Shown here in pieces: positions 3,906-41,855 of a DNA stretch of 64,000 bases. The stretch's first letter is position 1, and the number at the start of each line of letters is the position of its first letter. Under the pieces are notes generated by a model. That model had not been told where the DNA came from. It saw only the letters and a program-made list of their open reading frames with translations, and did not search any database. The position numbers were made by a program, and so were the translations under genes. The DNA comes from Bacillota bacterium (GTDB taxonomy: Bacteria > Bacillota_I > Bacilli_A > RF39 > UBA660): assembly GCA_015059495.1 (NCBI GenBank), contig SVAI01000001.1, forward strand, positions 435,246 through 499,245. The letters run 5' to 3'.

Positions 3906-4028
3906 TAATAATTATAAGTAAATAAGAAATAAAATGCAAGGAATAAAGTAACAACAAAATTACGTTTGATGCAATTTGATAAATAATTCATTTTATGTTA
4001 TGATAACCACAAGAAATGAGGTGTAATT

Positions 4029-4598
4029 ATGAAATATGATTTCGAAAAAGAAATTATAGAGCAAAAGCCCCTTACTGCCAAGCAAAAAAATATTCTAGAT
4101 TATATTAAAAAATATATCGCAGAATATAATTATGCACCAACTATTAGAGAAATTGGCGAAGGAAATAACTTGTCATCCTCAGCAACTGTACATACTTATA
4201 TAAATATTTTAATTACTAAGGGATGGTTAAAGAAGAGTGACTATAAATTTAGAACTCTTGAAGTAGTCGGCGAAAACGAATACTTAAACCAAGCTAGAGG
4301 CATAACTACTCTACCATTAATCAACGAAGATAAAGACTTTAAAGAACAACAAGAAAATGGTAAGAAAATTGATATTTATAATGATCAATTTGCCGTAACT
4401 AAAGAATCTCTAGTAATTAAAATAACTAAAGATGATATCTTTCAAAAAGATGATTACATTATCACTAAACCATCTAGTAAATATAAGGATAGTGATTATG
4501 TAGTTACTCTAAAAGATGATAAAGTTAGTATTGTAAAATACAAGGCTAATACTAAAAATATTATTGGTAAAGTCATTGCATCAATAAGAAAATATTAA
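4029..4598 (+). CDS. LexA-like transcriptional repressor with degenerate (probably non-cleavable) S24 domain
   Basis: N-terminus LTAKQKNILDYIKKYIAEYNYAPTIREIGEGNNLSSSATVHTYINILITKGWL aligns with the LexA winged-HTH (B. subtilis LexA: LSKRQLDILRFIK...[34 protein letters not shown]). The C-terminal end ...NIIGKVIASIRKY matches LexA ...ILGKVIGVFR. The GDSM catalytic-Ser position reads KDDI, and the segment between the Lys region and the C-terminus is deleted. RBS GAGGTG sits 7 nt upstream. Confidence 0.6.
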   Translation: MKYDFEKEIIEQKPLTAKQKNILDYIKKYIAEYNYAPTIREIGEGNNLSSSATVHTYINILITKGWLKKSDYKFRTLEVVGENEYLNQARGITTLPLINEDKDFKEQQENGKKIDIYNDQFAVTKESLVIKITKDDIFQKDDYIITKPSSKYKDSDYVVTLKDDKVSIVKYKANTKNIIGKVIASIRKY

Positions 4599-4630
4599 AA
4601 AAGATGTTTTAATAAACATCTTTTTTATTT
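4598..4630. terminator. bidirectional rho-independent terminator between the convergent lexA-like and TasA-like genes
   Basis: aaaagatgttt-taat-aaacatctttt hairpin flanked by A-run and T-run. Confidence 0.55.
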
Positions 4631-6283
4631 TGACTCTCGAGGAGAATTAATTGCTAACTTGTATGGATTATTTGATGTACCATTTCCTTCAAAAATTACA
4701 ACTGAATTATCAAGATAAACTACAGGGAAAACTCCCTTTACATTACTTCCAGTTTGTAATCCCATGTAACCACTTTCTCCTATACCAAAAGACTCACTAG
4801 CATTTCCTGACCAAGCATAAGGTGGAAATATCCAATACCAAATATTTTTGACTAGCCAAGTATTATTATAACAATCTGAAATATTTTCTATATTACTTTC
4901 ATCCATCCACATAAGCGGACCATAACTTATGCACGCACTTCTATTTAAGTTAGCACCACCACTACTTGAATAACCATAATCACTAGCATACAATAAGCCA
5001 ACCTTAGCAATAGTACTAGTAGTTCTTTCAACACTATCATTACAATATTTAGAAGATGCACATCCTTTTGAAATACTATTGCCTCTTTCATATGTATAAA
5101 AATCAACTATTGTAGTTTGACCAAGAGTATTATTCATTTCAGCTGGTAGAGAACCATGCTTCCAATTAACAGTACTAATCATTTTTTGAGCAGTTGCATT
5201 TAATGTTGAAGCTGGCTTAGCAGCTTTCTTTTTATTACCATCGCCATTATACCATTTACCATCAGTACCAACAGTTATATTACCTAAATAATCAGTATTT
5301 AATTCTCTATATAAGTCAGCACCTTCATAAGTTCCAGATGATCCCCATTGATTTATTCCCCATCCACTATTTATACTTGATGCACTAGAATCCCAAGAAT
5401 AATTACCAAGAGATACATCTCTTATAATTTTAACTCTAGGAGCAACATTACCATTTTGATCTTCAATATTATTAAATACACCAACAATTCGCCATTTTTC
5501 ACAAGTTGAATCCCCCATTACTTCAGGATCATCACTAGTACAATTAAAATAAACATAATTATTAGGATTTGCACCATAATATCTTAAGTTATTATCTTCA
5601 GTTCCATATTCTCCTAAAGTATCAACACCATCATATTCTAAATCACTAGCACCATTATTTTTTAATACAGTTAAATAATCAACTGCAGGTTTAATACTAG
5701 ATTCAAGATAATTGTTAATGTTTATCTTAGCAGTAAATCTTCTATTTTTGTTATCATCTTGATTAGAATTATCTTCCCTAAATTTAAATCTAATTAAGTA
5801 TGTATCAACTCTATCAACATCAATAGATCTAGTACTACCTATTTTTGAACTCTCACCAACTATACTTGGTACTACTTCATCATCCACTATTTTAGTAAAA
5901 CCAGTTAAATCCCCATAAACAAAAGTAAAATCAGTAGAATCATTTCTATAATAAAGATCATATACAAGATCATTTTTATCTACAAAAGTATTAATTATTT
6001 CAGACAAGTAAATATTATAGGCAGTTTCAACACTTCCATTATTATGAACACTAAACATTTTATCAATTTGAGCACCTGGAATAGCATCAAAAACAACTTT
6101 TTCACCATTATCATGAAAGTCTAAACTTAAAGTCCCACTAGTAATAACATTACTATTAGCATTATTATTACCTTCAACACTTGCAGTATAATATGCAAAA
6201 GATGCTACTGTAGCAATAGATAAAATTAAAAATGCTCCAATAACAACTAATAATTTAAAATATTTATTCATCATGTCAATCAC
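4625..6283 (-). CDS. secreted protein with SipW-cognate-type signal peptide and TasA/camelysin-like N-domain fused to a large C-terminal extension
   Basis: The TM/h-region is followed by SFAYYTASVEGNNNANSNVITSGTLSL (compare CalY GGTFAYFSDKEVSNNTFATGTLDL). The downstream block ...PGAQIDKMFSVHNNGSVETAY... resembles the TasA beta-sandwich (PGD...V.N.G). It is paralogous to five other genes in the window. Confidence 0.6.
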   Translation of the reverse strand: MIDMMNKYFKLLVVIGAFLILSIATVASFAYYTASVEGNNNANSNVITSGTLSLDFHDNGEKVVFDAIPGAQIDKMFSVHNNGSVETAYNIYLSEIINTFVDKNDLVYDLYYRNDSTDFTFVYGDLTGFTKIVDDEVVPSIVGESSKIGSTRSIDVDRVDTYLIRFKFREDNSNQDDNKNRRFTAKININNYLESSIKPAVDYLTVLKNNGASDLEYDGVDTLGEYGTEDNNLRYYGANPNNYVYFNCTSDDPEVMGDSTCEKWRIVGVFNNIEDQNGNVAPRVKIIRDVSLGNYSWDSSASSINSGWGINQWGSSGTYEGADLYRELNTDYLGNITVGTDGKWYNGDGNKKKAAKPASTLNATAQKMISTVNWKHGSLPAEMNNTLGQTTIVDFYTYERGNSISKGCASSKYCNDSVERTTSTIAKVGLLYASDYGYSSSGGANLNRSACISYGPLMWMDESNIENISDCYNNTWLVKNIWYWIFPPYAWSGNASESFGIGESGYMGLQTGSNVKGVFPVVYLDNSVVIFEGNGTSNNPYKLAINSPRESK

Positions 6284-6476
6284 ACCTACTACTATTTATA
6301 TAATTATAATATCAAATTTATTAAATAAAAAAAAGATTTATTTTCATAAATCTTATAAATATAAAGAAGAAGATTTTGTTGTGATTTTAGAAGATAAACA
6401 TGTTAAAACTGTTAAATACACCAAGAAGCCAGAGAAAGTTATTGGAAAAATAATCGCAGTTTACAAGAAATTTTAA
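6273..6476 (+). pseudogene. remnant of a LexA-like gene (C-terminal fragment only)
   Basis: The ORF C-terminus FVVILEDKHVKTVKYTKKPEKVIGKIIAVYKKF is clearly homologous to the C-terminus of the 4029-4598 protein (YVVTLKDDKVSIVKYKANTKNIIGKVIASIRKY). The N-terminal 35 aa are low-complexity and there is no HTH. Confidence 0.45.
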
Positions 6477-6503
6477 AAGAGGTATATTAATACCTCTTTT
6501 AAA
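6474..6503. terminator. rho-independent terminator
   Basis: aaaagaggtata-ttaa-tacctctttt hairpin with flanking T/A runs, between the LexA remnant and the convergent TasA-like gene end. Confidence 0.5.
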
Positions 6504-8070
6504 TTGCTAATTTATAAGGATTATCATATGATCCATCACCTTCAAGTACATATACATCATTTTTTAAATAAAGTGCAGGTCTAACACCATTCTTTTCAAA
6601 TAACATTCTCTCAGTTATATCACCACTCGAAGAAAGACAATAAACTGTATTTGCTGAATTTGATGTTCCAGAAGCAGTAATAGTAAATAAAGTTATATAA
6701 TTATATTCATTCCCAACTCCATATAGCCAAGAGGACGAACCGCAAAAAGTGTACCTATAACTCCAAAGTGAAAAATCAGTTTCCAAACATGTTCTTTTAT
6801 CATAATTATCACTACCACTAGTAGAATAACCGAATTCACTAACAGACATTAATCCGATCTTTCCAACCCACGATGATGTTCTTACAACAGTGTCACTACA
6901 ATCAACACCACCACTACAATATTTACCGTTATTTTCACTTCTTTCTAAATTATACATATTTTTAGGATTAAAACTCAACGTTGAATATCCTTTAGAACCT
7001 GTATACCATTTAGCTTCTTGAATCATATTTAAAGCATTACTCTTAATTGTTGATGTAGGTCTTTTTACAGTTCTTCTATTATAATAATCACCAACCCAAT
7101 ATCCATCAGCACCTATGGTATAATTACCCAAATAATCGGTATTTAATTCTCTCATAAGAAACGACCCAGGATATAAAGTACCATCTTCATATACAGATTC
7201 ACCCCATTGATTAACACCAGTACCTTGATTAACAGCTTTAATCGAACTATCCCAAGAATACAATCCTAAATATCCACTATGTATAATCTTAACTCGTGAA
7301 TCAGCATTACCTTCACCATCTTCGATATTATTAAAAATTCCCATAATTTGCCACTTTTGACAGGTATAAATAGACATTTCATCAGGATTAGAAGTATTAC
7401 AATTAAAATAAACATAATTATTTGGAAATTTTCCTACATATCTTAAATTATTATCTGAAGTTCCAACATCACCTAAAGTATCAACACCATCATATTCCAA
7501 ATAACTAGCACCTGCATTTTTATCTTCAATAATCTTAGTAGCTAATCTAATTTTAGGTACTTCCTCAGATAGTTCAACTTTAGCTCTAAATGTTTTACCC
7601 TTATTATTATCTTGATTTAAGTTAGTCTCTTTAAAAGTAATCTTTAATGTATAATTGTGAGTTTGACCAACACCAATTGCAACATTAGATGCTATTTTTG
7701 TATTTGTTTCTGGACAAGTAGTTTGATTAATATTATAACCTTCGCTACTAATTAATTCATAAACTAAATCACTTTTATTAGCGAAATCATTTATAACATC
7801 ATTTAAATATATATCATAAGCGGTATCAACTGTACCAGTATTTCTAACACTAAATGCTAAAGTTACATAGTCCCCTGGTAACATATTTGAAGTTGTACCA
7901 ACAACATTACCATTTTCAAAAGTAACCTCCATATACCCAGTAACAATAACAGTATTACTAGCCGTAGCATTCCCACCTATACTCGCAGTAAAATAAGCAT
8001 AAGATGTAATAGATACTAAAGCAATAATTAAAACACTTAATATATACAATATAGTTTTTTTATTATTCAT
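6499..8070 (-). CDS. secreted TasA/camelysin-like N-domain protein with C-terminal extension (paralog)
   Basis: The signal peptide is followed by SYAYFTASIGGNATASNTVIVTGYMEV. Residues 24-160 are identical to the 8087-9754 product. The central YDGVDTLG...YVYFNC...QWG...RELNTDYLGN module and the C-terminal NGVRPALYLK...NPYKLAI are shared with paralogs. Confidence 0.6.
   Translation of the reverse strand: MNNKKTILYILSVLIIALVSITSYAYFTASIGGNATASNTVIVTGYMEVTFENGNVVGTTSNMLPGDYVTLAFSVRNTGTVDTAYDIYLNDVINDFANKSDLVYELISSEGYNINQTTCPETNTKIASNVAIGVGQTHNYTLKITFKETNLNQDNNKGKTFRAKVELSEEVPKIRLATKIIEDKNAGASYLEYDGVDTLGDVGTSDNNLRYVGKFPNNYVYFNCNTSNPDEMSIYTCQKWQIMGIFNNIEDGEGNADSRVKIIHSGYLGLYSWDSSIKAVNQGTGVNQWGESVYEDGTLYPGSFLMRELNTDYLGNYTIGADGYWVGDYYNRRTVKRPTSTIKSNALNMIQEAKWYTGSKGYSTLSFNPKNMYNLERSENNGKYCSGGVDCSDTVVRTSSWVGKIGLMSVSEFGYSTSGSDNYDKRTCLETDFSLWSYRYTFCGSSSWLYGVGNEYNYITLFTITASGTSNSANTVYCLSSSGDITERMLFEKNGVRPALYLKNDVYVLEGDGSYDNPYKLAI
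7571..8004. repeat. copy 1 of a ~434 bp near-identical direct repeat (5' coding region of a TasA-like paralog)
   Basis: Direct reading shows the DNA at 7571-8004 and 9252-9685 is identical except for about 3 positions (for example gctc/gtac near the start and a/g at 7620/9300). Confidence 0.8.
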
Positions 8071-8086
8071 CTAAATCCTCCTTATC

Positions 8087-9754
8087 TTAATTTGAAATAG
8101 TTAATTTATATGGATTAGATGATGTTCCTTCACCTGAAGCTATAGATACTTCATTTTTTAAGAATAATGCTGGACGAACACCACCATTTTGGCTTGCATA
8201 ACCATCACTTGTAGTAATATCAAAGCCATGGTATTCGCTCGTCCAATAACCAGCACCACTAATGGAGCTACCGGTATAAGCAACACAATCAGTCCAATAA
8301 TTCATTGTTGTGGACGGAGACAAAAAATTATCCAAATAATCGATTTTAATAATCCATGAACTAGTTATACAATCACCTGTATATGATGTATTATTATAGT
8401 CTAAGCAAACATTTCTACTTAAACCATTAACTGGTTTTATAGAATAAGCAAAATCACTAGTATATATTAAAGCAATTTTTCCAATCCATGTTGTTGTTCT
8501 TACAACTGTATCATTGCAAACATTATCATAATCTTCCATATTTTTACACTGATCAGGATTATTATTACTTCTCTCACCTACATAAAAATTTTTAGCTGTC
8601 CAAGTTGAATACTCATGTTTTAAGGTTGTAACATCATAATATCCTTCTCTAGCTCCCAAATTCCATTTTACAGTTTGAATCATATTTTGAGCATTTTGAT
8701 TTAAAGTTGTTGTTGGCATGTCTATTTTATGTATAACTTCATCGGTTCCACTATTATAAATGTGGGTATACCACTTACCATCTGTTCCAACTGTTATATT
8801 CCCTAAGTAGTCAGTATTTAATTCTCTCATAAGGTCTGCACCTTCATATGGTGTACCATCTTCATATGTTGATGCACCCCATTGATTAATACCCCAACCC
8901 TGATTTATTTCTTCTACAGAATCATCCCAAGAATAATTACCTAGTGAATCATCTCTCATAATCTTTATACGAGAAGCACTATTTCCATTTTCGTCTTCAA
9001 TATTATTAAATACACCTACTATTCTCCATTTTTCACAAGTTTCATCATTCATTAAAGATGGATTTGTAGTTGTACAGTTAAAATAAACATAATTATTTGC
9101 ATCACTACCTACATATCTTAAGTTATTATCTATTGTACCTTCTTCACCTAATGTTGCAACACCATCATATTCTAAATCAGTTGCACCATTATTTTTTAAA
9201 TCAGTTAAAAAACTTACTATACCATTTGTAGGACTATCATTATTTTCCTCAAGTTCAACTTTAGTACTAAATGTTTTACCCTTATTATTATCTTGATTTG
9301 AGTTAGTCTCTTTAAAAGTAATCTTTAATGTATAATTGTGAGTTTGACCAACACCAATTGCAACATTAGATGCTATTTTTGTATTTGTTTCTGGACAAGT
9401 AGTTTGATTAATATTATAACCTTCGCTACTAATTAATTCATAAACTAAATCACTTTTATTAGCGAAATCATTTATAACATCATTTAAATATATATCATAA
9501 GCGGTATCAACTGTACCAGTATTTCTAACACTAAATGCTAAAGTTACATAGTCCCCTGGTAACATATTTGAAGTTGTACCAACAACATTACCATTTTCAA
9601 AAGTAACCTCCATATACCCAGTAACAATAACAGTATTACTAGCCGTAGCATTCCCACCTATACTCGCAGTAAAATAAGCATAAGAAGCTATTGTTGCAAC
9701 ACTTATTACAAAAATTGATAAAACCAAAAGAAAAGATTTTACTCTTCTATTCAT
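8087..9754 (-). CDS. secreted TasA/camelysin-like N-domain protein with C-terminal extension (paralog)
   Basis: Same N-terminal motif and domain as above. It is 16 bp upstream of the next paralog with an AGGAGG RBS in the gap, so the two are probably co-transcribed. Confidence 0.6.
   Translation of the reverse strand: MNRRVKSFLLVLSIFVISVATIASYAYFTASIGGNATASNTVIVTGYMEVTFENGNVVGTTSNMLPGDYVTLAFSVRNTGTVDTAYDIYLNDVINDFANKSDLVYELISSEGYNINQTTCPETNTKIASNVAIGVGQTHNYTLKITFKETNSNQDNNKGKTFSTKVELEENNDSPTNGIVSFLTDLKNNGATDLEYDGVATLGEEGTIDNNLRYVGSDANNYVYFNCTTTNPSLMNDETCEKWRIVGVFNNIEDENGNSASRIKIMRDDSLGNYSWDDSVEEINQGWGINQWGASTYEDGTPYEGADLMRELNTDYLGNITVGTDGKWYTHIYNSGTDEVIHKIDMPTTTLNQNAQNMIQTVKWNLGAREGYYDVTTLKHEYSTWTAKNFYVGERSNNNPDQCKNMEDYDNVCNDTVVRTTTWIGKIALIYTSDFAYSIKPVNGLSRNVCLDYNNTSYTGDCITSSWIIKIDYLDNFLSPSTTMNYWTDCVAYTGSSISGAGYWTSEYHGFDITTSDGYASQNGGVRPALFLKNEVSIASGEGTSSNPYKLTISN
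9252..9685. repeat. copy 2 of the ~434 bp near-identical direct repeat
   Basis: See copy 1. The repeat lies in the adjacent paralog, 1681 bp apart in the same orientation. Confidence 0.8.
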
Positions 9755-9907
9755 AAAAAATCACTCCTATAATTATATTTTTTTTAATTATCATGTTTAA
9801 AGACTTCATCTATAATAAGAATATCATTTAATTTAACATTTATCAATTACCTAAAGATAAATTTACGATTACTTTTACAAATAAAAAAAAGTCTTTATAT
9901 AAGACTT

Positions 9908-11047: not shown

Positions 11048-11319
11048 ATAATCATAATTATATCATATATTTAATCAGGTGATATAATTTGTCTAATATA
11101 TCTAAAGATTTATTAGTATTTATTATTATAAATATAGTATTAACTTTTATATTATATATATTTTATTCCAATGAAACACTATTGTCCTTAATAATTAATC
11201 TTTTATTAATAATAAATAATATTTTAATAATAATTGAAATGAAATACATACATAATAAATATTATTATATTAATTATATATTTCTACTATTTTTTATTTA
11301 TAATATCTTTATATTATTA

Positions 11320-12219
11320 TTAAAGTTCTTCTAAAGAATCTAAAGTATCTTGAAACTCTTTAGGTAATGGACATTCAAAATACATCTTTTTATTTGTAAT
11401 TGGATGATTAAATTCCATAGAATAAGAATGTAAATATTGTCCAAATTCTGTTGCTTTATCTTTTGAATATATAGGATCATTAAATATAGGATGATTAATA
11501 TACTTCATATGTACCCTAATTTGATGTGTTCTACCAGTTTCTAGGCGACATTTAACTAAAGTAAAGTTCTTATACCTTTTTAATACTTTAACGTGTGTAA
11601 TAGCACTTTTTGAGTTTTTAGAAGTAACTTTCATCATTTTACGAGATGATTCATCTCTACCAATAGGTGCATCTATTAAAACACTATCACTATCTAATAT
11701 TCCATGTATTAAAGCAATATATTCTCTTTTAATACTATGTTCTTTAAAATATTCACCTAATATTTCTTGAGACTTATTATTCTTAGCTATAATAATTAAA
11801 CCAGAAGTATCTTTATCAATTCTATGTACTATACCAGGTCTATATTCTTCATAGCCATCACTTAAATTATCTGCATAATACATTAAACCATTAACTAAAG
11901 TGTTATCATAATTACCATTACCTGGATGTACTACTACTCCACTAGGTTTATTAATAACCATAATATCATCATCTTCATAAACAATATCTAAATCCATTTT
12001 CTTAGCTTCAACTTTAGTATCTTTAATAAATCCATCTTTAATTTCTATTTCATCATCAATATTAACTTTATATGATGGTTTTTCTACACTTCCATTAACT
12101 AATACATAACCATCTTTTAACATTTTTAATATTAATGATCTAGAATATTCAGTATTTTCAGCTAAAAACTTATCTAATCTAATATTATCTATTTCTACCT
12201 TTATTTTCATTATCTTCAC
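11320..12219 (-). CDS. rluD: RluA/RluD-family 23S rRNA pseudouridine synthase
   Basis: N-terminal S4-like domain plus catalytic motif VHRIDKDTSGLIIIAKN. Sits in the conserved lspA-rluD arrangement. Confidence 0.85.
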   Translation of the reverse strand: MKIMKIKVEIDNIRLDKFLAENTEYSRSLILKMLKDGYVLVNGSVEKPSYKVNIDDEIEIKDGFIKDTKVEAKKMDLDIVYEDDDIMVINKPSGVVVHPGNGNYDNTLVNGLMYYADNLSDGYEEYRPGIVHRIDKDTSGLIIIAKNNKSQEILGEYFKEHSIKREYIALIHGILDSDSVLIDAPIGRDESSRKMMKVTSKNSKSAITHVKVLKRYKNFTLVKCRLETGRTHQIRVHMKYINHPIFNDPIYSKDKATEFGQYLHSYSMEFNHPITNKKMYFECPLPKEFQDTLDSLEEL

Positions 12220-13636: not shown

Positions 13637-14404
13637 TTAATCAATCAATTTTTTTAGTTTTAATATCGCACTTTTTTCAATTCTAGATACTTGAGCTTGT
13701 GATATATCTAAACTAGATGCTATTTCACTTTGTGTCATACCATAAATATATCTACTTTCTAATACTTCTCTTTCTCTTAATTTAATATGTTCTAAAGCTT
13801 TTCTTAATGCTATTAAACTATCTTTATCTTTATTAGTATCTGCTATTTGATCACATAAATATATAGTATCTCCATTATCACTATATATTGGATCATATAA
13901 AGAATATACATCTTTTAAGCTATTTAATGCTAATCTAATATCATATTCATTTAAATTTAAATCTCTTTTAATATCTTCTATTGAAGGTTCTTTCCCATTA
14001 TTAATTAAATAATCTTCTTTATACTTTAATATTAAATAAGCATTATCTTTAATACCTCTAGATATCCTAATACTTGTATTATCTCTAATATATCTTTTTA
14101 TTTCTCCTAATATTAGAGGTACTGCATATGTAGAAAATAAACAATTATATGATAAATCAAAATTATCTACTGCTTTAATTAATCCTATTACCCCTATTTG
14201 AAATAAATCATCTAAATTATTATTTTTATTATTAAATCTCTTAATAATAGATAATACTAACTTTAAATTACCATTAATTATTATTTCTTTATTTTCTTTC
14301 TTACCATCTCTTAATCCTTTAAATAACTCTACCATATCTTTATTTGATAATACTTTTAAATTATTAGTATTAATACTAGTTATTTCAACACTATATTTAC
14401 TCAT
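13637..14404 (-). CDS. SigF/SigG-family (group 3, sporulation-type) RNA polymerase sigma factor
   Basis: Aligns along its length with B. subtilis SigF: DLFQIGVIGLIKAVDNFDLSYNCLFSTYAVPLILGEIKRYIRDN, DNGDTIYLCDQIAD, LREREVLESRYIYGMTQSEIASSLDISQAQVSRIEKSAILKLKK. No spoIIAA/AB or spoIIGA neighbours. Confidence 0.8.
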   Translation of the reverse strand: MSKYSVEITSINTNNLKVLSNKDMVELFKGLRDGKKENKEIIINGNLKLVLSIIKRFNNKNNNLDDLFQIGVIGLIKAVDNFDLSYNCLFSTYAVPLILGEIKRYIRDNTSIRISRGIKDNAYLILKYKEDYLINNGKEPSIEDIKRDLNLNEYDIRLALNSLKDVYSLYDPIYSDNGDTIYLCDQIADTNKDKDSLIALRKALEHIKLREREVLESRYIYGMTQSEIASSLDISQAQVSRIEKSAILKLKKLID

Positions 14405-14449
14405 AATAAAAATCCTTTCTAATCATATATTGATTAAAAAGGATTATTT

Positions 14450-15136
14450 TTATACTAAATTAGATAAATAATTAACAATCTCATTAATATTAAATAATAA
14501 CACAAATATTATACTTAAGAATATAATACCAATTATTATTATACCTATAGGTTTAAATTGATTAGATTGTTTAACTATTATTAAATTCTTATCTTTTAAT
14601 TCATTTAATATATTATCTATAGTATTTATATTATAATTACTTTCTTTTAAATCTAATAAAGACTTTCTAACATCTATATTAGGTATAGTATCAATAACTG
14701 CTTTAAATATTTCATTTAAATCATTATTATATTTATGATTACCTATAACATTTCTAAAAGTTAGTGCTAAAGAATTACCAATTCTATTAGATACTATATC
14801 TAAAGAATTCTTTAAATCTTTAGTAGTATTATATGATAACTTAAGCATATTAAATAAAAGAATAGCTTCATCATATAACTTATCACTTCTTATTTTAATC
14901 TTATTATCTATTAATATTAATGTATATAAATAATAAAATGATATAGATATTATTAATGCTAATAGCAATCCATATTTAGGTACTAATAAACATATAATAA
15001 ATAAGAATATTGATATTAATAATCTAGTTACTAAAAAATACTCTAATTTTAATTTATTATTAGGTCCTAAATAAGACATCTTTTTATTATATTTATTAAT
15101 ATATTTCTTACTAAAAATATTCTTTAATATATTCAT
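14450..15136 (-). CDS. TadC-like (type II secretion system F-domain) membrane protein
   Basis: 228 aa with N-terminal TM pair, helical cytoplasmic segment and C-terminal TM. Position and size fit the Tad locus inner-membrane platform. No strong motif. Confidence 0.4.
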   Translation of the reverse strand: MNILKNIFSKKYINKYNKKMSYLGPNNKLKLEYFLVTRLLISIFLFIICLLVPKYGLLLALIISISFYYLYTLILIDNKIKIRSDKLYDEAILLFNMLKLSYNTTKDLKNSLDIVSNRIGNSLALTFRNVIGNHKYNNDLNEIFKAVIDTIPNIDVRKSLLDLKESNYNINTIDNILNELKDKNLIIVKQSNQFKPIGIIIIGIIFLSIIFVLLFNINEIVNYLSNLV

Positions 15137-16113
15137 TTTCTAGCCTCCATCATCTTTCTAATAGTATGAATAAAGACTATATATATAAATACTATTACTT
15201 CTAATATAATTATTCCATATACATTATTAAATACATTATTAAAGTAATTAAAATCATTAATAGACATAAATAATATTATAGATAAAGGAAGTAACATAAA
15301 TACTATTTTAATAACATTTAATATTGTATTTAAAGAATCTTTATAAGTATTTTTCTTATCATAATATTCAAAATTACTTCTAACTATATGAAATGTATCT
15401 TCTAAATTATCTGAATCTATATCAAGTAAATGATATATAACTCTAATCTCAGGTATTCTAGTTCTTTTATAAAATCTTCTAAATGCTTGAGTTAAAGATA
15501 TATTATAAGATAAATCTATTAATATTCTTTGATATTCATCTGCTATATCATCATCTAATTCTCTAACTACTTTACTTAAAGCATTATATATATTAGTTTT
15601 AGATATGTTATCATCTAATACTATAATAGATTCATATAACTTATTAGATATATTCTTACATTTCTTTTCATATCTAATTTGCCAATATAAACTAGGTAAA
15701 ACAATTCCAAGTATAACAAATATAACAAGTAATATAATATTAAAACTAAATACTCTAGCTAATACTAAAAATAAATATAAAAGAATTGATAATATTAAAG
15801 ATATTAATATTACAGTTATATAATCTATTGGACTCTTAAAATCCTCTTCTTTAATTAATATGTATTTTTCATATCTAGAAGATAACTTCATTAAAACTCT
15901 ACTTTTATTTAATAAATTACTAATTAAATGTACTAAATTCCATAATACATGAGATATCTTTTCAAATGTAGTCGTATCATCAAAATCTTTTTTAGATAAA
16001 GAAAAATTACTAATTCTAGTTTCTAATAAAGATGATCTAATTGAATATATTACATTAAAGATAATAACTAAGGAGATAAATATTAAAATGAGTTGTATTA
16101 CATATGCATTCAT
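15133..16113 (-). CDS. TadB-like (type II secretion system F-domain) membrane protein
   Basis: 326 aa with topology similar to TadB/GspF-family platform proteins. Overlaps its neighbours (operon). Confidence 0.4.
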   Translation of the reverse strand: MNAYVIQLILIFISLVIIFNVIYSIRSSLLETRISNFSLSKKDFDDTTTFEKISHVLWNLVHLISNLLNKSRVLMKLSSRYEKYILIKEEDFKSPIDYITVILISLILSILLYLFLVLARVFSFNIILLVIFVILGIVLPSLYWQIRYEKKCKNISNKLYESIIVLDDNISKTNIYNALSKVVRELDDDIADEYQRILIDLSYNISLTQAFRRFYKRTRIPEIRVIYHLLDIDSDNLEDTFHIVRSNFEYYDKKNTYKDSLNTILNVIKIVFMLLPLSIILFMSINDFNYFNNVFNNVYGIIILEVIVFIYIVFIHTIRKMMEARK

Positions 16114-16125
16114 AATTTATCCCCC

Positions 16126-17424
16126 TTATTTAAGACTATCAAATATATCATCTATATAATCTATACCTTTACTAGATATCTTTTTATATGCTCTAGGTAT
16201 ATATTTATATAATTGGAATTCACCATCTACTCTACCACTATCAAGTAATTTCTTTTGTTTAAAAGCAAATATTTCTTTTAATACAATTTCACCTTTTTGA
16301 TTCTTATTTAATTCCAAAATAGATGTAATTCTATGTTTATTATCACTTAACTTAGATATAGTAACTATTAAATCTATAGCATTATACATAGTTTCTCTAG
16401 CTATTTTAGATGCTATATTCTTTTGTTCTACATATGCTGATTCTAAGAAATTAATAACTTCTAAAGCATTATTTGAAGAACACGTTTCCATTACATTAAT
16501 TGAATCATCTACCATAACATCAATACTAGATGAAACTAATTCTTTACTTAAATTATTAATAATTAATGTATTAGGATGTATATTTAATGCTGTTTTAATA
16601 ATATTATCATTAGTCTTTAAATTAACCACATTATTCTTTCTAATATTTAATTCATCGGTTGGTGATATAGTAATTAACCTCGAATAATCTGAAGATAAAT
16701 TAGCAAGAGAAGATAAAAGTGATGTCTTACCACTCTTTGATCCACCAGAGATGATAATATTAAGTTTAGCTTTAACAGCAGCCTCTAAAAATCTAGCCAT
16801 ATATGGTGTTAAAGTACCAAGTTTAACTAATTCATCCATATCAGTAACAACTGGATTAAATTTCTTAATATTAATAACAGGTCCATTAACAGATACCGGA
16901 GGCATAACTACAGTTAAAAGTGATCCATCACTTAAAGTAGTTTCAATAACATTAGATGAATCTAATTTAATATTTGAATTAGATAATAATTTCTTTATAG
17001 TTCTTATAATATGTTCATTATTAATAAATGATATTGAATTATCTCTAACTATCTTACCATCTACTAAAGCATATATTTCATTATAAGAATTAACCATTAT
17101 TTCTTCTACATTATCATCTTTTAACAATGATGATAATGGTCCATATCCATTAATTTCTTCATTAATAATATTATATAAATGATTTCTTTCTAAATTAGAT
17201 AAATTATATCCCCTAGTCTTTTCACTAATTACATCAAGTACTAATTCTTTAGTAATAGTAATATTCTTATAAGATTGATTACCTAATTCATTTAAAATAT
17301 TTCTTCTTAATATTTCTAATTCTTCTTTATTATTAAAAATATATTTTAAATCATCTTCTTTATAATCATAATTAACATCTAAATTAAATTCTTTAATTAA
17401 ACTATTTCTACTCATGAATATCAC
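16126..17424 (-). CDS. CpaF/TadA-type secretion ATPase (VirB11/GspE superfamily)
   Basis: Walker A IISGGSKSGKTSLLSSLANL (compare CpaF ISGGTGSGKTTLLNAL), length about 430 aa, N-terminal regulatory domain. Confidence 0.8.
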   Translation of the reverse strand: MIFMSRNSLIKEFNLDVNYDYKEDDLKYIFNNKEELEILRRNILNELGNQSYKNITITKELVLDVISEKTRGYNLSNLERNHLYNIINEEINGYGPLSSLLKDDNVEEIMVNSYNEIYALVDGKIVRDNSISFINNEHIIRTIKKLLSNSNIKLDSSNVIETTLSDGSLLTVVMPPVSVNGPVINIKKFNPVVTDMDELVKLGTLTPYMARFLEAAVKAKLNIIISGGSKSGKTSLLSSLANLSSDYSRLITISPTDELNIRKNNVVNLKTNDNIIKTALNIHPNTLIINNLSKELVSSSIDVMVDDSINVMETCSSNNALEVINFLESAYVEQKNIASKIARETMYNAIDLIVTISKLSDNKHRITSILELNKNQKGEIVLKEIFAFKQKKLLDSGRVDGEFQLYKYIPRAYKKISSKGIDYIDDIFDSLK

Positions 17425-18193
17425 CCCTCTTTTCAGTGATATCAGCTGCTATAGTAAGTAATGTTGAATAGTCTTTTTGATATACTCTAGCTACATCTTT
17501 TAATAATGTTGGTATATGTCCATTCATTAATATTCTATCAATATTTTCAATAAAGAATTCAGTAGATAAAGTATAATCTATATTTGCTTGTATAGTTTTC
17601 TTAATATCATACATAGAAAAATAATCTTTAAAAGGATTATTAGAATTATTTAATAATACTTTATAATTATCTATTCCTAAATTCTTTAATATAGCAAGAA
17701 CTGATCTAGTACTCTTTAAATTTAATGGATCATTATTAATCATAAATAATATATCATCTACTTTATCCATTAAATATAAAGTTGTTGGTCCAAGATCATG
17801 ATTAGAATCTATTAATATAACATCATAGATAAATCCAGCTTGATCTATAATCATATCTAAATATCTTAAATCAATCTTAGAGGCATCTCTAGGATCTTTA
17901 GGACATGCAATAGCGCTAATATATTTATTATATTTTAAAACATAATTATCAAAATCTTCGAAGACATTATTTTTTAAATCTTCACTCATTTCATATACAG
18001 ATTTATTATAAGATTTATTTAATGCTAGAGCTATTCCACCACTAGTTAAATCTAAATCTATAATTAATACTTTCTTCTCTAAAGAGCAGATTATACCTGC
18101 TAAATCTAAAGTAAATATGGTTTTACCCACGCCACCTTTAGTTGAAGCAATTAAAACTGATTTTGATTTTTTAGTACTTGCCATACTTACCAA
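17408..18193 (-). CDS. ParA/MinD-superfamily ATPase, CpaE/TadZ-like
   Basis: Deviant Walker A KGGVGKT (ASTKGGVGKTIFTLDLA). 4 bp overlap with the CpaF-like gene. Confidence 0.7.
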   Translation of the reverse strand: MVSMASTKKSKSVLIASTKGGVGKTIFTLDLAGIICSLEKKVLIIDLDLTSGGIALALNKSYNKSVYEMSEDLKNNVFEDFDNYVLKYNKYISAIACPKDPRDASKIDLRYLDMIIDQAGFIYDVILIDSNHDLGPTTLYLMDKVDDILFMINNDPLNLKSTRSVLAILKNLGIDNYKVLLNNSNNPFKDYFSMYDIKKTIQANIDYTLSTEFFIENIDRILMNGHIPTLLKDVARVYQKDYSTLLTIAADITEKRGDIHE

Positions 18194-18256: not shown

Positions 18257-19183
18257 TTATAATGCTAAAACAAATAATTCTAGTGCTAAATACTTATCCA
18301 TATTATTAGATTTTAACTTATAATCTAAGTCTAATAATTCTAATAATTTATCTTCTAAATCTTTACTAACATAATGATATGAATTATTAATAGTTTTATC
18401 TAATTGCCAGTCTAATAAACCTAGTTTTTTAGCTATATCACTATTAGAATAACCCTTATCTTGTAAATACTTAGCAAATAGCATTAATCTATATTCTCTA
18501 GCAAGTAATGATATTAAAACTATTGGTTCTATCTTAAATAATTTAAAATCTTTAATTAACTGCATAGCACTCTTAACATCTCTTTTAATAACGGCATCAA
18601 CAAACTTAAAATTATTATCATCAAGTGACTGAGATACTAAATTCTCTAAATCTATTTTCTTTATTTCACATGCTTCATTATAATATAACATTACTTTTTC
18701 TAATTGCATAATTGCTATATCATAATTAGATAATGATGCAAAAGTAATATATGAAGCATTACTTTCACTTAACTTATACCCTTCACTCTTAGCTTTAGCT
18801 ATTAACTTAGCATTAATATCTTTATAACCTAAAGGTTTAATATATATAAAAGCATTCTTATCTTTTAATAACTTAATTACTTTTTTTCTTTCATCTACTT
18901 TATCATTAAATAAAAATATTACTTCAGTTAATGGATTAGGATTCTCAATATACTTTTCAAGTATTTCAATATCATCTTTAGATTTAGCATCTAAAAAACT
19001 ACAATTCTTAACTAATATTTTCTTATGATCATCAAATAATGAAGTATAACTACATAAATGTACTATTTCAACTAAATTAGTATCATTATAATCAATTACT
19101 TCAACATCATCTAAACTTTTAAATATTTTAGTTATTTCTTCTAATCTTACATGATAAGAATTACTAGCAATTAAATATACCAT
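18257..19183 (-). CDS. holA: DNA polymerase III delta subunit
   Basis: 308 aa starting MVYLIASNSYHV. C-terminal LLAREYRLMLFAKYL...IAKKLGL is typical of HolA. Lies in the comEC-holA neighbourhood typical of Firmicutes. A terminator-like hairpin follows at about 18218-18250. Confidence 0.6.
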   Translation of the reverse strand: MVYLIASNSYHVRLEEITKIFKSLDDVEVIDYNDTNLVEIVHLCSYTSLFDDHKKILVKNCSFLDAKSKDDIEILEKYIENPNPLTEVIFLFNDKVDERKKVIKLLKDKNAFIYIKPLGYKDINAKLIAKAKSEGYKLSESNASYITFASLSNYDIAIMQLEKVMLYYNEACEIKKIDLENLVSQSLDDNNFKFVDAVIKRDVKSAMQLIKDFKLFKIEPIVLISLLAREYRLMLFAKYLQDKGYSNSDIAKKLGLLDWQLDKTINNSYHYVSKDLEDKLLELLDLDYKLKSNNMDKYLALELFVLAL

Positions 19184-19673: not shown

Positions 19674-20570
19674 TCATACTAACTCATATTCTCTAGCAAT
19701 TATTCTATCATCAGAACAATATTTAATAACATATTCATTATCTTGCTTACATATAATAATACCTACTGTATCATTTTCTTCTATAGTCTTAACATTTTTA
19801 TCAATGTAATTCATATATGTCATAACTTGGCCTGTATGTTCTTTCTTTAGTTCTGTCACTTTTATTTCTACCACTACATAACATTTGTATTTAATGTTAT
19901 ACAAAAGTAAATCAATGTAATTATATCTATCGCCTATTTTAATAGGATATTCACTTTTAATAAATGTAAATCCATTTCCTAGCTCGTCTAAAAAATTTTC
20001 AATATCTTCTAATATTAATTTTTGTAATACTTTTTCTGAAAATATATCATACTTGCTATTATTTTTAATGATAATTGGATTCTTTACAAAATCAACCACA
20101 TTAGACTTATCTTGGTTTATTATTTTATTTTTTGTAGATTCTGGTAGTCTTTCATACTCATTAGACTTTATTCTTTCTCTTAACTGCCTAATTGATAAAC
20201 TGTTTAATTCAGATATTTTAACATAATATTGAAACTTATTATCATCAAACCAAAGAATTTCACAGTAATGACTCCAACTTAATTTGGCAGACAGTGTCTG
20301 CCATTTTTGAGAAACTTTATAAAATTGTCTCATATTTCTTAAATTTCTTTGGCTATAACCTAAGCCTAACTCTTCAGTTAGCTTTAAAGAATATTCTTTA
20401 ATAATACTTTCTCCATATTGATTACCCGCGTCTAATAATAATTTACCAACATTATAGTATGTATCTAAATCACTTTTATTAATTGAATAGTTCTTTACTT
20501 TTCTATTTATCTCATTGTTTATTAATTCATTTTTAATCTCATTGTAATAATTCATATTTACTCCTTTCAT
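19674..20570 (-). CDS. YhcG/DUF1016-family PD-(D/E)xK nuclease-like protein
   Basis: N-terminal DUF1016 hallmarks LSWSHYCEIL and LSIRQLRERI. The C-terminal PD-(D/E)xK core reads FLDELGNGFTF...YIDLLLYNIKYKCYVVVEIKVTELKKEHTGQVMTYMNYID (D...E-x-K). Confidence 0.8.
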   Translation of the reverse strand: MKGVNMNYYNEIKNELINNEINRKVKNYSINKSDLDTYYNVGKLLLDAGNQYGESIIKEYSLKLTEELGLGYSQRNLRNMRQFYKVSQKWQTLSAKLSWSHYCEILWFDDNKFQYYVKISELNSLSIRQLRERIKSNEYERLPESTKNKIINQDKSNVVDFVKNPIIIKNNSKYDIFSEKVLQKLILEDIENFLDELGNGFTFIKSEYPIKIGDRYNYIDLLLYNIKYKCYVVVEIKVTELKKEHTGQVMTYMNYIDKNVKTIEENDTVGIIICKQDNEYVIKYCSDDRIIAREYELV

Positions 20571-20597: not shown

Positions 20598-22676
20598 CTA
20601 TGGAATGCAAGTATCTATTTTTAATTTATTATTTTTAATCTTAAACATAATACTACCATCTTCATCTGTTCTATATATCTTTGAATGATTTAAAGTATTT
20701 AATACTTCTTTATTGGGATGTCCATATCTATTATTCTTTCCAACACTAATAATGGAATATTTTTGATTAATTTCATTTATAAACTCTTTACTTGAACTTG
20801 TTTTAGATCCATGATGTCCTACTTTTAATACATCTATATCAGGTAGATTATATTTATTTAATATTTCTTTTTCAGTAGTAACTGATGCATCTCCCATAAA
20901 CATAAATTTATATCCACTAAGTTCGGCATAAATTACATTTGAGTTATCATTCTCATTGTCATAAACTTTAGTTTGTAAAAACAACATATCTTCTAATTTA
21001 TTAATACAAGTATTGTATTTTATATTCTTTTTATCTAATACTTTTATTAATTCTTTTTCTAAATTGTTATAAGGACCACAGTTAAAAATAACACGCTCCA
21101 CTTTTATATTATTAATAATATTTATCGCTTCACCAACATGATCTTGATCACCATGACTAATAACTAAATTATTTATTCTACTTATCCCAATGCTATGCAT
21201 AAAAGAAATAGTATTATCACTCAAATGATATTCTTTGTTCTTCTTCTTCCATTTCTCTTCTTTAAATTTTACTAATCCACCAGTATCAATTAAAGTAACA
21301 TTCTTGTGTCTTGGACTAACAACAAGTGCACTATCTCCTTGCTGTACATCAAAAAAATAAACATAACTACTATCATCAAGGAAATAATTATATTTAACAA
21401 ATAATATCAATAATAAATAACAAAGTATCATTCTTTTATACCTGTAACTTAGTACTAAGAATATGTAATAAATAAATATTACCAACAAAGGAATCTTAGG
21501 AATAACAGCATTAATAATATTTATATTTATTAAAAAATTATTGATAATAAATAATAAATTTAAAGATAAATCAAATAAAGGATTAAATATAGGAATAATT
21601 AAAGTTAGAATACTTAATGGATAAACAATTAAACTAACTAAAGGAACTACAAATAAATTATTTATCGGACTCATTAAATTAATAACATAATTATTATTAA
21701 TAGTTATTGGTAAAGAAAATAAAAAAGCAATTATACTTACTTTTAATAATATATAAAAATAATTACCTCTTTTTAAGTAATTATTAAATTTAATTAATCC
21801 ATAAGTAGTTAAACTAGAATATAAGAATCCAATATCATATATAATAAAACAATCAATTATTATATTAATTACTATAGTTAAATAAAATAAATTCATAGTT
21901 TTAATATCTAATTTAAATATTTTATTTAATGATAACAATAAATATAAAGTATATGCTCTTTTAATAGATGATGGAAACGAACATAATAAACCATATATAA
22001 ATAAAACTATTAAAGATATTATTATAGGTATATTTTTATTCTTTAACTTAGATAATAAAAATAATACTACACAAGAAAACAACGTAATATGCATACCTGA
22101 AACACTAAATAAATGACTTATACCAAGTGTTTGATAATTATTTAAATCATCACTATCTATACTAGTCTTATCACCTAGTATAAATATTTTAATGTATTCA
22201 CTATTATCTCTTTTATCAATAGTATCACTTAAGAAATTCTTAAACCTATTAATTAAACTAATATTATTATTACTTATATTAAAACTACTAATATTAAATA
22301 TTTTATATATTCTTTTATTGTATAAATATTTCCTATAATTAAATGTATTAAATATACTATTATTACTTGGATCACTTAATTCACCAGTTAAATTAACATA
22401 ACTACCATATTTTAAATTATCTATAAAGTATTCTTTTTCTTCTTTTGTTTTTAGGTAATAAGTACCTACAACTTTCTCTTTATTAGTTTTAAAAGTTATA
22501 GATACTTTATTACCATCTATTTTTTTACTTAATACTACTCCATCTAATTTATTTTCAATAGTATATTTAGACTTATATGAAATTAAAACTGTTGAAAAAA
22601 ATACATATATAAAACTTAATATTAATAATAAATAATAAAATAAATTAGATTGTAATACTATCTTTAATCTTTTCAT
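20598..22676 (-). CDS. comEC: DNA internalization competence protein ComEC/Rec2
   Basis: 692 aa with a polytopic competence domain plus the C-terminal metallo-beta-lactamase motif HGDQDH. Adjacent to comEA. Confidence 0.85.
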   Translation of the reverse strand: MKRLKIVLQSNLFYYLLLILSFIYVFFSTVLISYKSKYTIENKLDGVVLSKKIDGNKVSITFKTNKEKVVGTYYLKTKEEKEYFIDNLKYGSYVNLTGELSDPSNNSIFNTFNYRKYLYNKRIYKIFNISSFNISNNNISLINRFKNFLSDTIDKRDNSEYIKIFILGDKTSIDSDDLNNYQTLGISHLFSVSGMHITLFSCVVLFLLSKLKNKNIPIIISLIVLFIYGLLCSFPSSIKRAYTLYLLLSLNKIFKLDIKTMNLFYLTIVINIIIDCFIIYDIGFLYSSLTTYGLIKFNNYLKRGNYFYILLKVSIIAFLFSLPITINNNYVINLMSPINNLFVVPLVSLIVYPLSILTLIIPIFNPLFDLSLNLLFIINNFLININIINAVIPKIPLLVIFIYYIFLVLSYRYKRMILCYLLLILFVKYNYFLDDSSYVYFFDVQQGDSALVVSPRHKNVTLIDTGGLVKFKEEKWKKKNKEYHLSDNTISFMHSIGISRINNLVISHGDQDHVGEAINIINNIKVERVIFNCGPYNNLEKELIKVLDKKNIKYNTCINKLEDMLFLQTKVYDNENDNSNVIYAELSGYKFMFMGDASVTTEKEILNKYNLPDIDVLKVGHHGSKTSSSKEFINEINQKYSIISVGKNNRYGHPNKEVLNTLNHSKIYRTDEDGSIMFKIKNNKLKIDTCIP

Positions 22677-39959: not shown

Positions 39960-41855
39960 TTAATTAGTTCTTAAAGTAAAGTATCCTGCTTTATTAGCAG
40001 AAGGATTATCTATTCTAGCATATTCACCATTTATATGACTATCAGTATAAGTAGTTCCAGCTCCACCTTTTAATTTAGTACTACCAATAAACATATTACC
40101 AGCACTATAAGATGAAGGATGAGCAAAATCACTAGGTACATAAACAGTTTCAAGTTCAGTACAATAATTCATCATATATTTAAGACTAGTAACCTTAGAA
40201 GTATTAAACTTAGGACCTAAATCAAGAACTCTAATAGATGATAACCAAGTAAACATAGCTTGCATATTAGTAACATTTGATGTATCAAAATTATTGCCTA
40301 AATTTAAATCAGTTAATGCATGCATACTAGCAAACATTGATTGCATAGTTGTTACTTTAGAAGTATCAAACTTATCACCTAAATCTAAACTAGCGACATT
40401 CTTTAACCCTGCAAACATACTTCTCATATAGCTAACATTTGATGTATCAAAATTAGAACCCAAATCTAATGATTCTAAAGCATCACAACTTTCAAACATA
40501 CTATTCATATTAGATACTCTACCAGTATTAAATTTATCACCTAAATCTAATGATTTAAGATTCTTCATATTATAAAACATATATTTCATATCACTTACAT
40601 TAGATGTATCAAAATTAGATCCTAAATCTATACTTTCCATACTTTGTAGATTAAAAAACATTCCTGACATATTCTTAACATTACCAGTATTAAAATTATT
40701 ACCAAAATTAATAGATGTAATATTAGCACAATTATAAAACATATCTTCCATAGTAGTAACATCACTTGTATCAAAGCTGTTTCCAAAATCTATAGCTTGT
40801 ATATAATAACTATTATAAAACAATCCATACATATTCTTAACACGAGATGCATTTAATTTTTCTAAATTTAAACTAGAATATCCCATGTTATTTGAAAACA
40901 TATAAGAACTATTTTCATTCATATAAATAGTAGGATTTTCAGAACTTATATATAATATTCCATTATAAACAAAAGCATAAATATCATCATCTCTATTATC
41001 AGATGAAACATCCATAATTGTAACATTTTCTAATATTTGAGAAGGTAAATCAGATATTTTTGTATTACTAATGGATAAAGCACGTATATATAATTTACCA
41101 TCATTTATAGTGCTTAATAAAGTATTATTATAATATTCCTCACATGTTAGACCAGATGTTTCAAAATCACTTTTACTAGCACAATAAGCATCTAAATCAA
41201 CACCAACATGATTTCTAGCCGATTCAACTGATAACTCACTAACTATTTGATTAAAGGTAGGACCATCAACAAGTTCAGCTACTCTTTCAGCTTCTTTATA
41301 ATCATTTATACTTATTTTACCCTTAAACTTTTTACCCTTATTATCATCTTGATTAGTTCCATCATCTTTAAAATAGAAAATTATTGTATAAGCATGAGCT
41401 TTACCAGCGCTTATCGAACAAGCAGAAAAAATTTTAGATTCTTCTCCTACCTCACTTGGAACAACTCTTTCTCCATCTACAGAACAACCATCTTCAAAAA
41501 TTTCAGAATTATGTTCATAATTAGATATGGAGTCAACATAATAAACTAAATCATTTTTATCAGCAAATGTATTTATTATTTCAGATAAATATACATCATA
41601 AGTAGTATCCATATTTCCTGAATTATAAACAACAAAAGACTTTTCTACACGTTGTGTTGGATAAGCATTATTTAAAGATACTTGATCGCCATCATAAAAT
41701 TCTAATCTTAAATCTCCAGATGTAATAACTGTATCATAAACACTCTCGTTACCTTTAACATTAGCTACGAAATACGCATAAGATGCACTAGTAACCAACG
41801 ATAATATTAAAAAGGCTGCAACTAATACAAGTGTTTTTATATATCTATTCTTCAT
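39960..41855 (-). CDS. secreted TasA/camelysin-like N-domain protein with C-terminal DUF285-type 26-residue surface repeats
   Basis: N-terminus SYAYFVANVKGNESVYDTVITSGDLRL plus a TasA-like domain (YLSEIINTFADKNDLVY shared with the 4625-6283 product). The C-terminal half has at least 8 tandem repeats of the form LDLG.NFDTSNVT.M..MF. Confidence 0.65.
   Translation of the reverse strand: MKNRYIKTLVLVAAFLILSLVTSASYAYFVANVKGNESVYDTVITSGDLRLEFYDGDQVSLNNAYPTQRVEKSFVVYNSGNMDTTYDVYLSEIINTFADKNDLVYYVDSISNYEHNSEIFEDGCSVDGERVVPSEVGEESKIFSACSISAGKAHAYTIIFYFKDDGTNQDDNKGKKFKGKISINDYKEAERVAELVDGPTFNQIVSELSVESARNHVGVDLDAYCASKSDFETSGLTCEEYYNNTLLSTINDGKLYIRALSISNTKISDLPSQILENVTIMDVSSDNRDDDIYAFVYNGILYISSENPTIYMNENSSYMFSNNMGYSSLNLEKLNASRVKNMYGLFYNSYYIQAIDFGNSFDTSDVTTMEDMFYNCANITSINFGNNFNTGNVKNMSGMFFNLQSMESIDLGSNFDTSNVSDMKYMFYNMKNLKSLDLGDKFNTGRVSNMNSMFESCDALESLDLGSNFDTSNVSYMRSMFAGLKNVASLDLGDKFDTSKVTTMQSMFASMHALTDLNLGNNFDTSNVTNMQAMFTWLSSIRVLDLGPKFNTSKVTSLKYMMNYCTELETVYVPSDFAHPSSYSAGNMFIGSTKLKGGAGTTYTDSHINGEYARIDNPSANKAGYFTLRTN

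Follow-up and report, generated by a model that had tools for sequence, protein, structure and literature searches.

Self-cleavage of the LexA repressor is the textbook trigger of the SOS response and drives DNA repair, mutagenesis, prophage induction and the spread of mobile elements. Here we analyzed a LexA-like gene in a 64-kb stretch of DNA from a Bacillota bacterium (GTDB lineage Bacillota_I; Bacilli_A; RF39; UBA660), which spans positions 435,246 to 499,245 of contig SVAI01000001.1 in assembly GCA_015059495.1. This whole stretch is referred to below as the window, and it is strongly AT-rich with a G+C content of 24.8%. The 189-amino-acid product has the N-terminal winged helix and the C-terminal strand IIGKVI..R in common with the canonical LexA proteins of E. 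coli and B. subtilis (TIGR00498; PF01726 plus PF00717), and the gene resembles canonical lexA in its genomic position, a linker motif and a promoter layout with a box at or near the -35 hexamer. In contrast to canonical LexA, the protein has no Ala-Gly, no Ser and no hairpin, its general-base column does not hold a Lys, and it gives no match to the S24 hidden Markov model (HMM). RecA-stimulated self-cleavage would not be expected of this protein because the Ala-Gly, the Ser, the general-base Lys and the hairpin are all gone. We regard it as likely that the gene is the lexA orthologue of its lineage, converted from a damage-cleavable switch to a non-cleavable DNA-binding regulator.

The closest precedent is the LexA of Synechocystis sp. 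PCC 6803 (sll1626), which is non-cleavable and regulates non-SOS genes; its Ala-Gly site is gone, its Ser is replaced by Asp, its Lys is retained, no deletion in its C-terminal domain has been reported, and its own gene is not preceded by a recognizable SOS box (PMC1524924, PMC3091678, PMC4759255). Both the cyanobacterial and the window proteins are orthologous LexAs that have lost the Ala-Gly and the Ser and carry Asp in the Ser column. Unlike Synechocystis LexA, the window protein is trimmed and has lost the Lys column, it is found in Bacillota, in small-genome gut and rumen bacteria, and the loss recurs across clades. The window form is an analogue of the cyanobacterial non-cleavable LexA in a separate lineage, because its nearest relatives are canonical Bacilli LexAs and the loss arose inside this order.

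The C-terminal domain of the window protein was also matched in fold by that of the coliphage 186 CI repressor, with no further sequence relationship. We take the CI domain to be a non-catalytic S24-like oligomerization domain and thus a functional parallel. CI differs in having another N-terminal DNA-binding domain and in being a phage repressor, not a chromosomal lexA orthologue. No description of a trimmed Firmicute LexA form was found in the literature searched.

The LexA-like protein and its C-terminal domain

The gene and the parts of its product that are discussed in this section lie in the window as follows.

4029-4598, + strand: lexA-like coding sequence of 189 amino acids with an ATG start, within the interval 3990-4630 noted at first; positional lexA orthologue with a self-cleavage domain that appears dead.
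4018-4023, + strand: ribosome-binding site GAGGTG, 5 nt 5′ of the ATG, found by sequence inspection; relatives keep GAGG.
4065-4256, + strand: winged-helix LexA DNA-binding domain, residues 13-76, with the recognition helix SSSATVHTY.
4311-4343, + strand: region of the former cleavage site, residues 95-105 (LPLINEDKDFK), in which D103-F104 occupy the Ala-Gly columns of the alignments.
4428-4439, + strand: K134-D135-D136-I137, aligned with the nucleophile motif G-[DE]-S-M and followed by a 4-residue deletion.
4524-4544, + strand: V166-S-I-V169-K170-Y-K, aligned with the canonical V-T-L-K-T-F-Y, with the hairpin deletion next to it.
4557-4595, + strand: C-terminal strand NIIGKVIASIRKY, corresponding in the alignment to the LexA tail ILGKVIGVFR; strand predicted at residues 178-186 with a predicted local distance difference test score (pLDDT) of about 90.

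A Pfam search assigned residues 13-76 to LexA_DNA_bind (PF01726) with an E value of 7.1e-15 and 55 bits against a cutoff of 23.7, and gave no match to Peptidase_S24 (PF00717) in the 189-amino-acid protein at E values up to 1. The lexA equivalog model TIGR00498 covered residues 13-178 with 74.1 bits, which is under its cutoff of 110.95 bits. In a protein search, 12 short relatives ranked first (172-194 amino acids, PF01726 only), followed by canonical LexAs of 206-213 amino acids that contain both PF00717 and PF01726 and are 33-37% identical to the query. The LexA resemblance is not due to chance, since the 12 family members are intact at 44-89% identity. The linker motif KFRTLEVVGENEY is common to the window protein and the nearest canonical LexAs. 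The protein is annotated as 'hypothetical' by NCBI and as 'repressor LexA' by IMG, neither of which flags a cleavage-dead form.

For the C-terminal domain, the protein was aligned by MAFFT with the seven nearest canonical LexAs and then with larger sets, and the family profile was also aligned to E. coli LexA (1jhf). Where the canonical proteins read GKITAGNP with the Ala-Gly bond, the window protein reads NEDKDFK, and none of the 12 family members has an AG dipeptide in the cleavage region of the alignments. The column of the Ser nucleophile is occupied by D136, both with the seven nearest canonical LexAs and with the larger set; in the 1jhf profile alignment, G-M-S119 falls opposite a gap, and the Ser is absent under either alignment. 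The general-base Lys column, which corresponds to K156 in E. coli, holds V169 and is variable across the family; the next residue, K170, is a Lys. A hairpin block of 19-20 residues, HIRLQPENDTMEPIILPNC (HIRLQPEND...PIIL), is deleted from the stretch that links the Lys region to the tail, and about six further residues are missing besides this hairpin of about 20 residues when compared with canonical LexA. The tail NIIGKVIASIRKY aligns with ILGKAIGLYRK and retains the core I-[IL]-G-K-[VA]-I, in which G180 is invariant and K181 is invariant inside the family. This strand is taken here as the dimer-interface strand.

A preliminary description of the gene, made from the letters of the window, had proposed a LexA winged-helix N-terminal domain, a LexA-like C-terminal tail, a catalytic GDSM Ser that reads K-D-D-I and a missing stretch between the Lys region and the tail. 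The match to LexA_DNA_bind, the alignment of NIIGKVIASIRKY with ILGKAIGLYRK, the assignment of D136 to the Ser column and the 19-20-residue deletion bear out these four proposals, and the loss of the Ser-Lys dyad that it expected agrees with the lack of a Peptidase_S24 match and of a Ser in the alignments. Its suggestion of a LexA-type binder unable to autocleave is likewise supported by the apparent loss of the self-cleavage apparatus. The losses extend beyond what was described at that stage, as they also include the Ala-Gly bond and the Lys of the aligned column.

Two AlphaFold (AF2) models, one from a mixed alignment and the other from a family-only alignment of 12 sequences, both reached a pLDDT of 86.5 with the same secondary structure, and the pLDDT was 85-94 across the C-terminal domain. 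The top Foldseek ranks were full-length LexA structures (3jsp_B; template modeling score, 0.66; E value, 2.7e-8). On these models, the C-terminal domain is predicted to be still a trimmed S24-type beta-fold that ends in the LexA tail IIGKVIASIRKY. The LexA fold is preceded by 12 extra N-terminal residues (MKYDFE...; window 4029-4064), which are predicted with low confidence; this extension is kept within the genus and is not present in P0012, P0013 or the canonical LexAs.

Selection was estimated by the Nei-Gojobori method for 11 family genes. The N-terminal domain, with an omega of 0.02-0.10 and an amino-acid identity of 86-93% across the genus, is under strong purifying selection, and the DNA-binding domain is fully maintained. 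The C-terminal domain has an omega of 0.18-0.45 (0.23-0.30 for pairs with unsaturated synonymous divergence) and an amino-acid identity of 37-57% across the genus; it is relaxed without being neutral, which would suit a structural or dimerization module.

The lexA slot and its operator across the order

We compared the locus in 63 species-representative genomes, mostly metagenome-assembled genomes (MAGs) of uncultured 'Bacilli', 'Tenericutes', 'Erysipelotrichaceae' and Ca. Coprovivens from goat, buffalo, rabbit, mouse and human gut. Around lexA, tkt and/or the MGDG synthase gene recur upstream and rhomboid - rluD recur downstream, and the gene order tkt(-) - MGDG synthase(-) - lexA(+) - rhomboid(-) - rluD(-) is found at most of the 63 GTDB loci and the metagenome loci. 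The window and the loci L001 and L002, which come from further assemblies of the same organism, have the order VanZ - tkt - MGDG synthase - lexA-like - [TasA-like genes] - rhomboid - rluD - lspA. At locus L003, the same tkt - MGDG synthase - lexA slot holds P0014, the closest canonical LexA (PF00717 and PF01726). The window, L007, L076, L077, L078/L072 and L006 constitute clade A, which is sister to L003 in the neighbor-joining trees of tkt and rhomboid. Because the slot is conserved and is occupied by a canonical LexA in the sister lineage L003, the window gene is the positional lexA orthologue rather than an extra copy. A metagenome scan for further family DNA yielded 6 loci only. A prophage or mobile origin of the gene was also considered and rejected, since its neighbors are conserved housekeeping genes.

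It is unlikely that the gene is an extra, non-cleavable paralogue beside a normal LexA, competing for SOS boxes or forming mixed dimers and so damping the SOS response. The well-conserved DNA-binding domain would suit such a paralogue, bacteria with two LexAs are known, for example Leptospira (PMC3789691), and the search was limited to the 64-kb window of the genome. However, the gene occupies the ancestral position of lexA, which in the sister lineage holds the canonical LexA, and the same in situ replacement is seen in two clades. Moreover, no second LexA/S24 gene was found in the window by tblastn, and none of the canonical LexAs nearest P0014 could be traced to the same genome among the best 120 of at least 8000 matches, which is an indirect and weak test. 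The idea of an SOS-box competitor, raised in the preliminary description, is not supported by the conserved slot, the canonical LexA of L003 in it and the lack of a second LexA/S24 gene in the window. The tblastn search of the window found no recA, using a query that is not a database sequence but is adequate for such a conserved protein; repair genes were likewise not seen in the window, and recO is present.

A second group, clade B, consists of L045, L046, L058, L059 and L068 (five species representatives; rumen and omasum MAGs). Its LexA-like proteins of about 182 amino acids are encoded in the same slot and are devoid of the AG, the Ser, the Lys and the hairpin. Clades A and B differ in the indel boundaries of the alignment, and canonical lineages lie between them in the trees of tkt, rhomboid and the LexA N-terminal domain. 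The N-terminal domains of clades A and B are 49% identical, and each is 61-66% identical to those of the canonical LexAs. Clade B appears to have lost the same features independently of clade A, which would bring the loss to at least one other clade.

Further decayed LexAs are numerous in metagenomes: an HMM search of the full library with the family profile gave 150 best-listed cluster representatives (50% clusters), 82 of which look complete. Part of the triad is missing from 68 of these 82; the hairpin is also missing from 41 of the 68, and the remaining 27 keep the hairpin length. Among the triad-defective representatives, P0141 is again encoded upstream of rhomboid - rluD - lspA. P0162, which reads NG and D-D-M and retains the Lys, is chromosomal at another location, and its 90% cluster has a member on 592 contigs.

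Intermediate forms were noticed among P0138-P0286, some of which may be alignment artefacts or phage repressors. The Ser and the Lys are retained without the Ala-Gly in P0236, P0245, P0261 and P0286, the Lys is changed to Arg in P0165, P0170 and P0202, and the Ser is gone with the hairpin retained in P0155, P0162 and P0166. These forms, and the division of the 68 triad-defective representatives by the hairpin, suggest a graded, stepwise decay series.

Upstream of the window gene, a promoter and a candidate operator were located.

3976-4004, + strand: sigma-70-type promoter TTGATA - 17 nt - TATGAT with TG before the -10 hexamer; 10 of 12 matches in a consensus scan.
3956-3970, + strand: remnant autoregulatory LexA box AAAATTACGTTTGAT, at the homologous position in clade A; single mismatch to RAAC-N4-GTTT.

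In 51 of the 54 canonical lexA loci, the sequence RAAC-N4-GTTT(GAC), typically AAACATTTGTTTGAC, overlaps the -35 hexamer at a fixed distance; the consensus reads AAACATTTGTTT. Because the -35 hexamer coincides with the right half of the box, only its left half is informative. All five clade B loci have a perfect box, GAACATTTGTTTGAC, on their own promoter (GAACATTTGTTT). In clade A, the -10 hexamer and the promoter spacing are kept and a site is present at the homologous position, the critical fourth base C of which is mostly gone (GAAT, GAAA) and the spacer of which is not A/T-only. The site of the window and L007 reads AAAATTACGTTT (3956-3967), with a change of the fourth base from C to A compared with the order-wide box RAAC-N4-GTTT.

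A 10-bp insertion (window 3966-3981), identified by comparison with L072, L073, L076, L077 and L079, gives rise to a second TTGAT motif (TTGATGCAATTTGATA). It generates a new -35 hexamer and leaves the old LexA box 10 bp upstream, uncoupled from the promoter. The insertion is common to the window and L007, and L006 has one of similar size. The pattern RAAHN4GTTTGAY has one match in the window, which is the 3956 site, where one is expected by chance. The inverted repeats of the promoter amount to one weak 11-nt pair at 3988-4019. Within the family, autoregulation may plausibly continue, but this is doubtful in the species of the window. Because the autoregulatory box is eroding and is displaced from the -35 hexamer, the regulon in this species is probably shrinking or drifting.

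TasA-like genes and other neighbors of the slot

Downstream of the lexA-like gene, three further features were recognized.

4596-4627, bidirectional: intrinsic terminator common to the lexA-like gene and the convergent TasA-like gene; 14-bp perfect stem and 4-nt loop.
6350-6476, + strand: remnant of another lexA-like allele, of which the last ~42 codons are left; a pseudogene fragment inside the mechanically called open reading frame (ORF) 6273-6476.
6472-6503, bidirectional: second terminator hairpin, carried with the lexA remnant.

The hairpin at 4596-4627 is flanked on both sides by A/T runs and has folding energies of -13.1 and -12.7 kcal/mol on the two strands (z scores of -6.2 and -7.4). 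It alone lies between the lexA-like gene and the convergent TasA-like gene (4625-6283, - strand), in agreement with the early statement that only a shared terminator separates the two. The remnant and the second hairpin precede the next TasA-like gene, and the similarity of the remnant to P0008 is visible at the protein level. At the DNA level, the remnant with its terminator is 89% identical to the 3′ end and terminator of the L079 allele (P0008) and 68% identical to the resident gene; for this reason, the preferred interpretation is that another allele left this end piece behind when a block of lexA plus TasA entered by recombination. Recombination, import or a very old duplication would explain its origin, rather than recent copying of the resident gene. 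The remnant arrangement recurs in L001, L002 and L075. The proposal that the two genes had been duplicated as a block holds in so far as a lexA 3′ remnant with a terminator precedes the second TasA-like gene, but not as to its source, which is the other allele (89% identity to L079 versus 68%).

It is highly unlikely that the LexA-like protein serves specifically to regulate the neighboring TasA-like genes for surface or fiber proteins, as part of one unit of inheritance and duplication. Such a role would fit the convergence with a TasA-like gene over a common terminator, the lexA-like 3′ remnant in the same arrangement before the next one, and the occupation of the slot by TasA-like genes elsewhere, with one such gene in L076 and in L078 and a 623-amino-acid gene, probably TasA-like, in L077, compared with three in the window. 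However, the slot between lexA and rhomboid is empty of TasA-like genes in L007, where rhomboid follows directly after a gene for a 97% identical protein, and in L006 it is filled with unrelated genes, a Coat_F set. Canonical lexA genes also have convergent TasA-like neighbors in L003, L027, L048 and L050. Furthermore, no LexA-box-like site was found with box variants upstream of the TasA-like genes of either cluster in the window, and convergent genes with a terminator between them are not co-transcribed. The association of lexA with TasA-like genes is positional, and the functional unit assumed in the preliminary description is not supported.

Among close relatives, the slot between lexA and rhomboid is hypervariable (window 4599-9907; L006, L007, L076-L078 and L081): it is empty or contains one or three TasA-like genes, a Coat_F set or one Mbeg1-like gene. 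This suggests an insertion or recombination hot spot for surface-protein genes. The three genes of the window (4625-9754, - strand) encode paralogous proteins of 523-555 amino acids, with a signal peptide that ends in S[FY]AY[FY]TAS and a weak Peptidase_M73 match. We take this signal-peptide ending to be a SipW-type motif. Their conserved C-terminal region of about 350 amino acids (DLEYDGV.TLG...NNLRY.G...NNYVYFNC...W[RQ]I[VM]G[VI]FNN) has no Pfam match. The products of a second three-gene cluster (39960-44888, - strand) begin with a TasA/camelysin-like (Peptidase_M73) domain, and two of the three genes are fused to DUF285 or BspA-type leucine-rich repeats. Because of these fusions, the M73-like N-terminal domain is a module joined to different C-terminal domains.

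Between rhomboid and rluD, the window has an ORF (11089-11334, + strand) for an extremely hydrophobic, I/L/N-rich product of 81 amino acids, and L006 and L077 have a + strand ORF of 108 amino acids at this position; the 81-amino-acid ORF could encode a real small membrane protein or be an AT-rich artefact. A gene for a YhcG-type PDDEXK nuclease (DUF1016; 19674-20570, - strand) is located between holA (18257-19183) and comEC (20598-22676) and may be an inserted element. Sporulation-type genes near the locus (window 13637-18193, - strand, and L001 1081-2046) encode a SpoIVB-like Peptidase_S55 and extra sigma-70 family factors. A T2SSE/ParA-like ATPase pair is found at the same locus, Coat_F occurs in L006, and MAGs of the group are labelled 'Tenericutes'. 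Because the locus has sporulation-type genes, the organism is a walled, probably spore-forming Bacillota bacterium with a small genome.

Proposed regulation without self-cleavage

If the lexA orthologue has been converted to a non-cleavable regulator, the 189-amino-acid protein would dimerize through its retained C-terminal domain, bind LexA-box-like DNA and repress transcription, and activated RecA would be unable to inactivate it. Binding to LexA-box-like DNA is suggested by a recognition helix close to that of the canonical sisters and by the perfect box in clade B. Cleavage would fail because all three required elements, the necessity of which has been established in E. coli LexA (PMC4759255), are absent. 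Since RecA could not inactivate the repressor, relief of repression would need another route, such as a change in the expression level, degradation by a housekeeping protease or the action of an anti-repressor.

Several points weigh against this conversion. K170 is found at +1 of the general-base column in 10 of the 12 family members, and a register shift of one residue is possible; even then, K170 would have neither a Ser nor an Ala-Gly partner. The trees are single-gene neighbor-joining trees without support values, and the LexA search covered 64 kb of a larger genome with one contig that reaches at least 1.26 Mb, in which a canonical paralogue may lie elsewhere. The operator of the window has one mismatch and no longer overlaps the -35 hexamer. 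The Firmicute Cheo box GAACN4GTTC (up to one mismatch) occurs 7 times in the window against 8.1 expected, with no occurrence upstream of the gene, and the order-specific box RAACWWWWGTTY has two matches in the window, both within coding regions and at chance level. Finally, dimerization, DNA binding and non-cleavage are read from sequence and predicted structure only.

That the gene is instead decaying toward loss with its function gone is scarcely credible: its catalytic machinery has disappeared, its C-terminal domain evolves about five times faster than the N-terminal domain and its operator is eroding in the species of the window, but the ORFs are intact with promoter and ribosome-binding site in more than 10 diverged lineages with saturated synonymous sites, omega is 0.02-0.1 in the N-terminal domain and below 0.5 in the C-terminal domain, and the fold is confidently predicted.

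For the whole of this order of AT-rich gut and rumen Bacilli with small genomes, we suggest tentatively, with confidence a little short of even, that LexA would have been converted repeatedly and in place to a trimmed, non-cleavable DNA binder through graded decay, so that classical SOS induction would be lost and LexA kept for another regulatory job or input, for example an anti-repressor or turnover. The Ala-Gly, Ser or Lys may have been lost first, followed by the deletion of the hairpin and, last, by the erosion of the operator.

Non-cleavable LexA is already known in Synechocystis, and the present case gains interest from the evidence for repeated, parallel loss of LexA self-cleavage in an abundant gut lineage. 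The cleavage-dead state of such proteins is missed by the NCBI and IMG labels, which represents a gap in annotation. The parallel trimming of the S24 domain may provide a natural series that separates the parts needed for catalysis only from those needed for dimerization. If the conversion of LexA is true, an abundant herbivore-gut clade, in which the only visible LexA is non-cleavable, would differ in its response to DNA-damaging drugs and would control its prophages differently.

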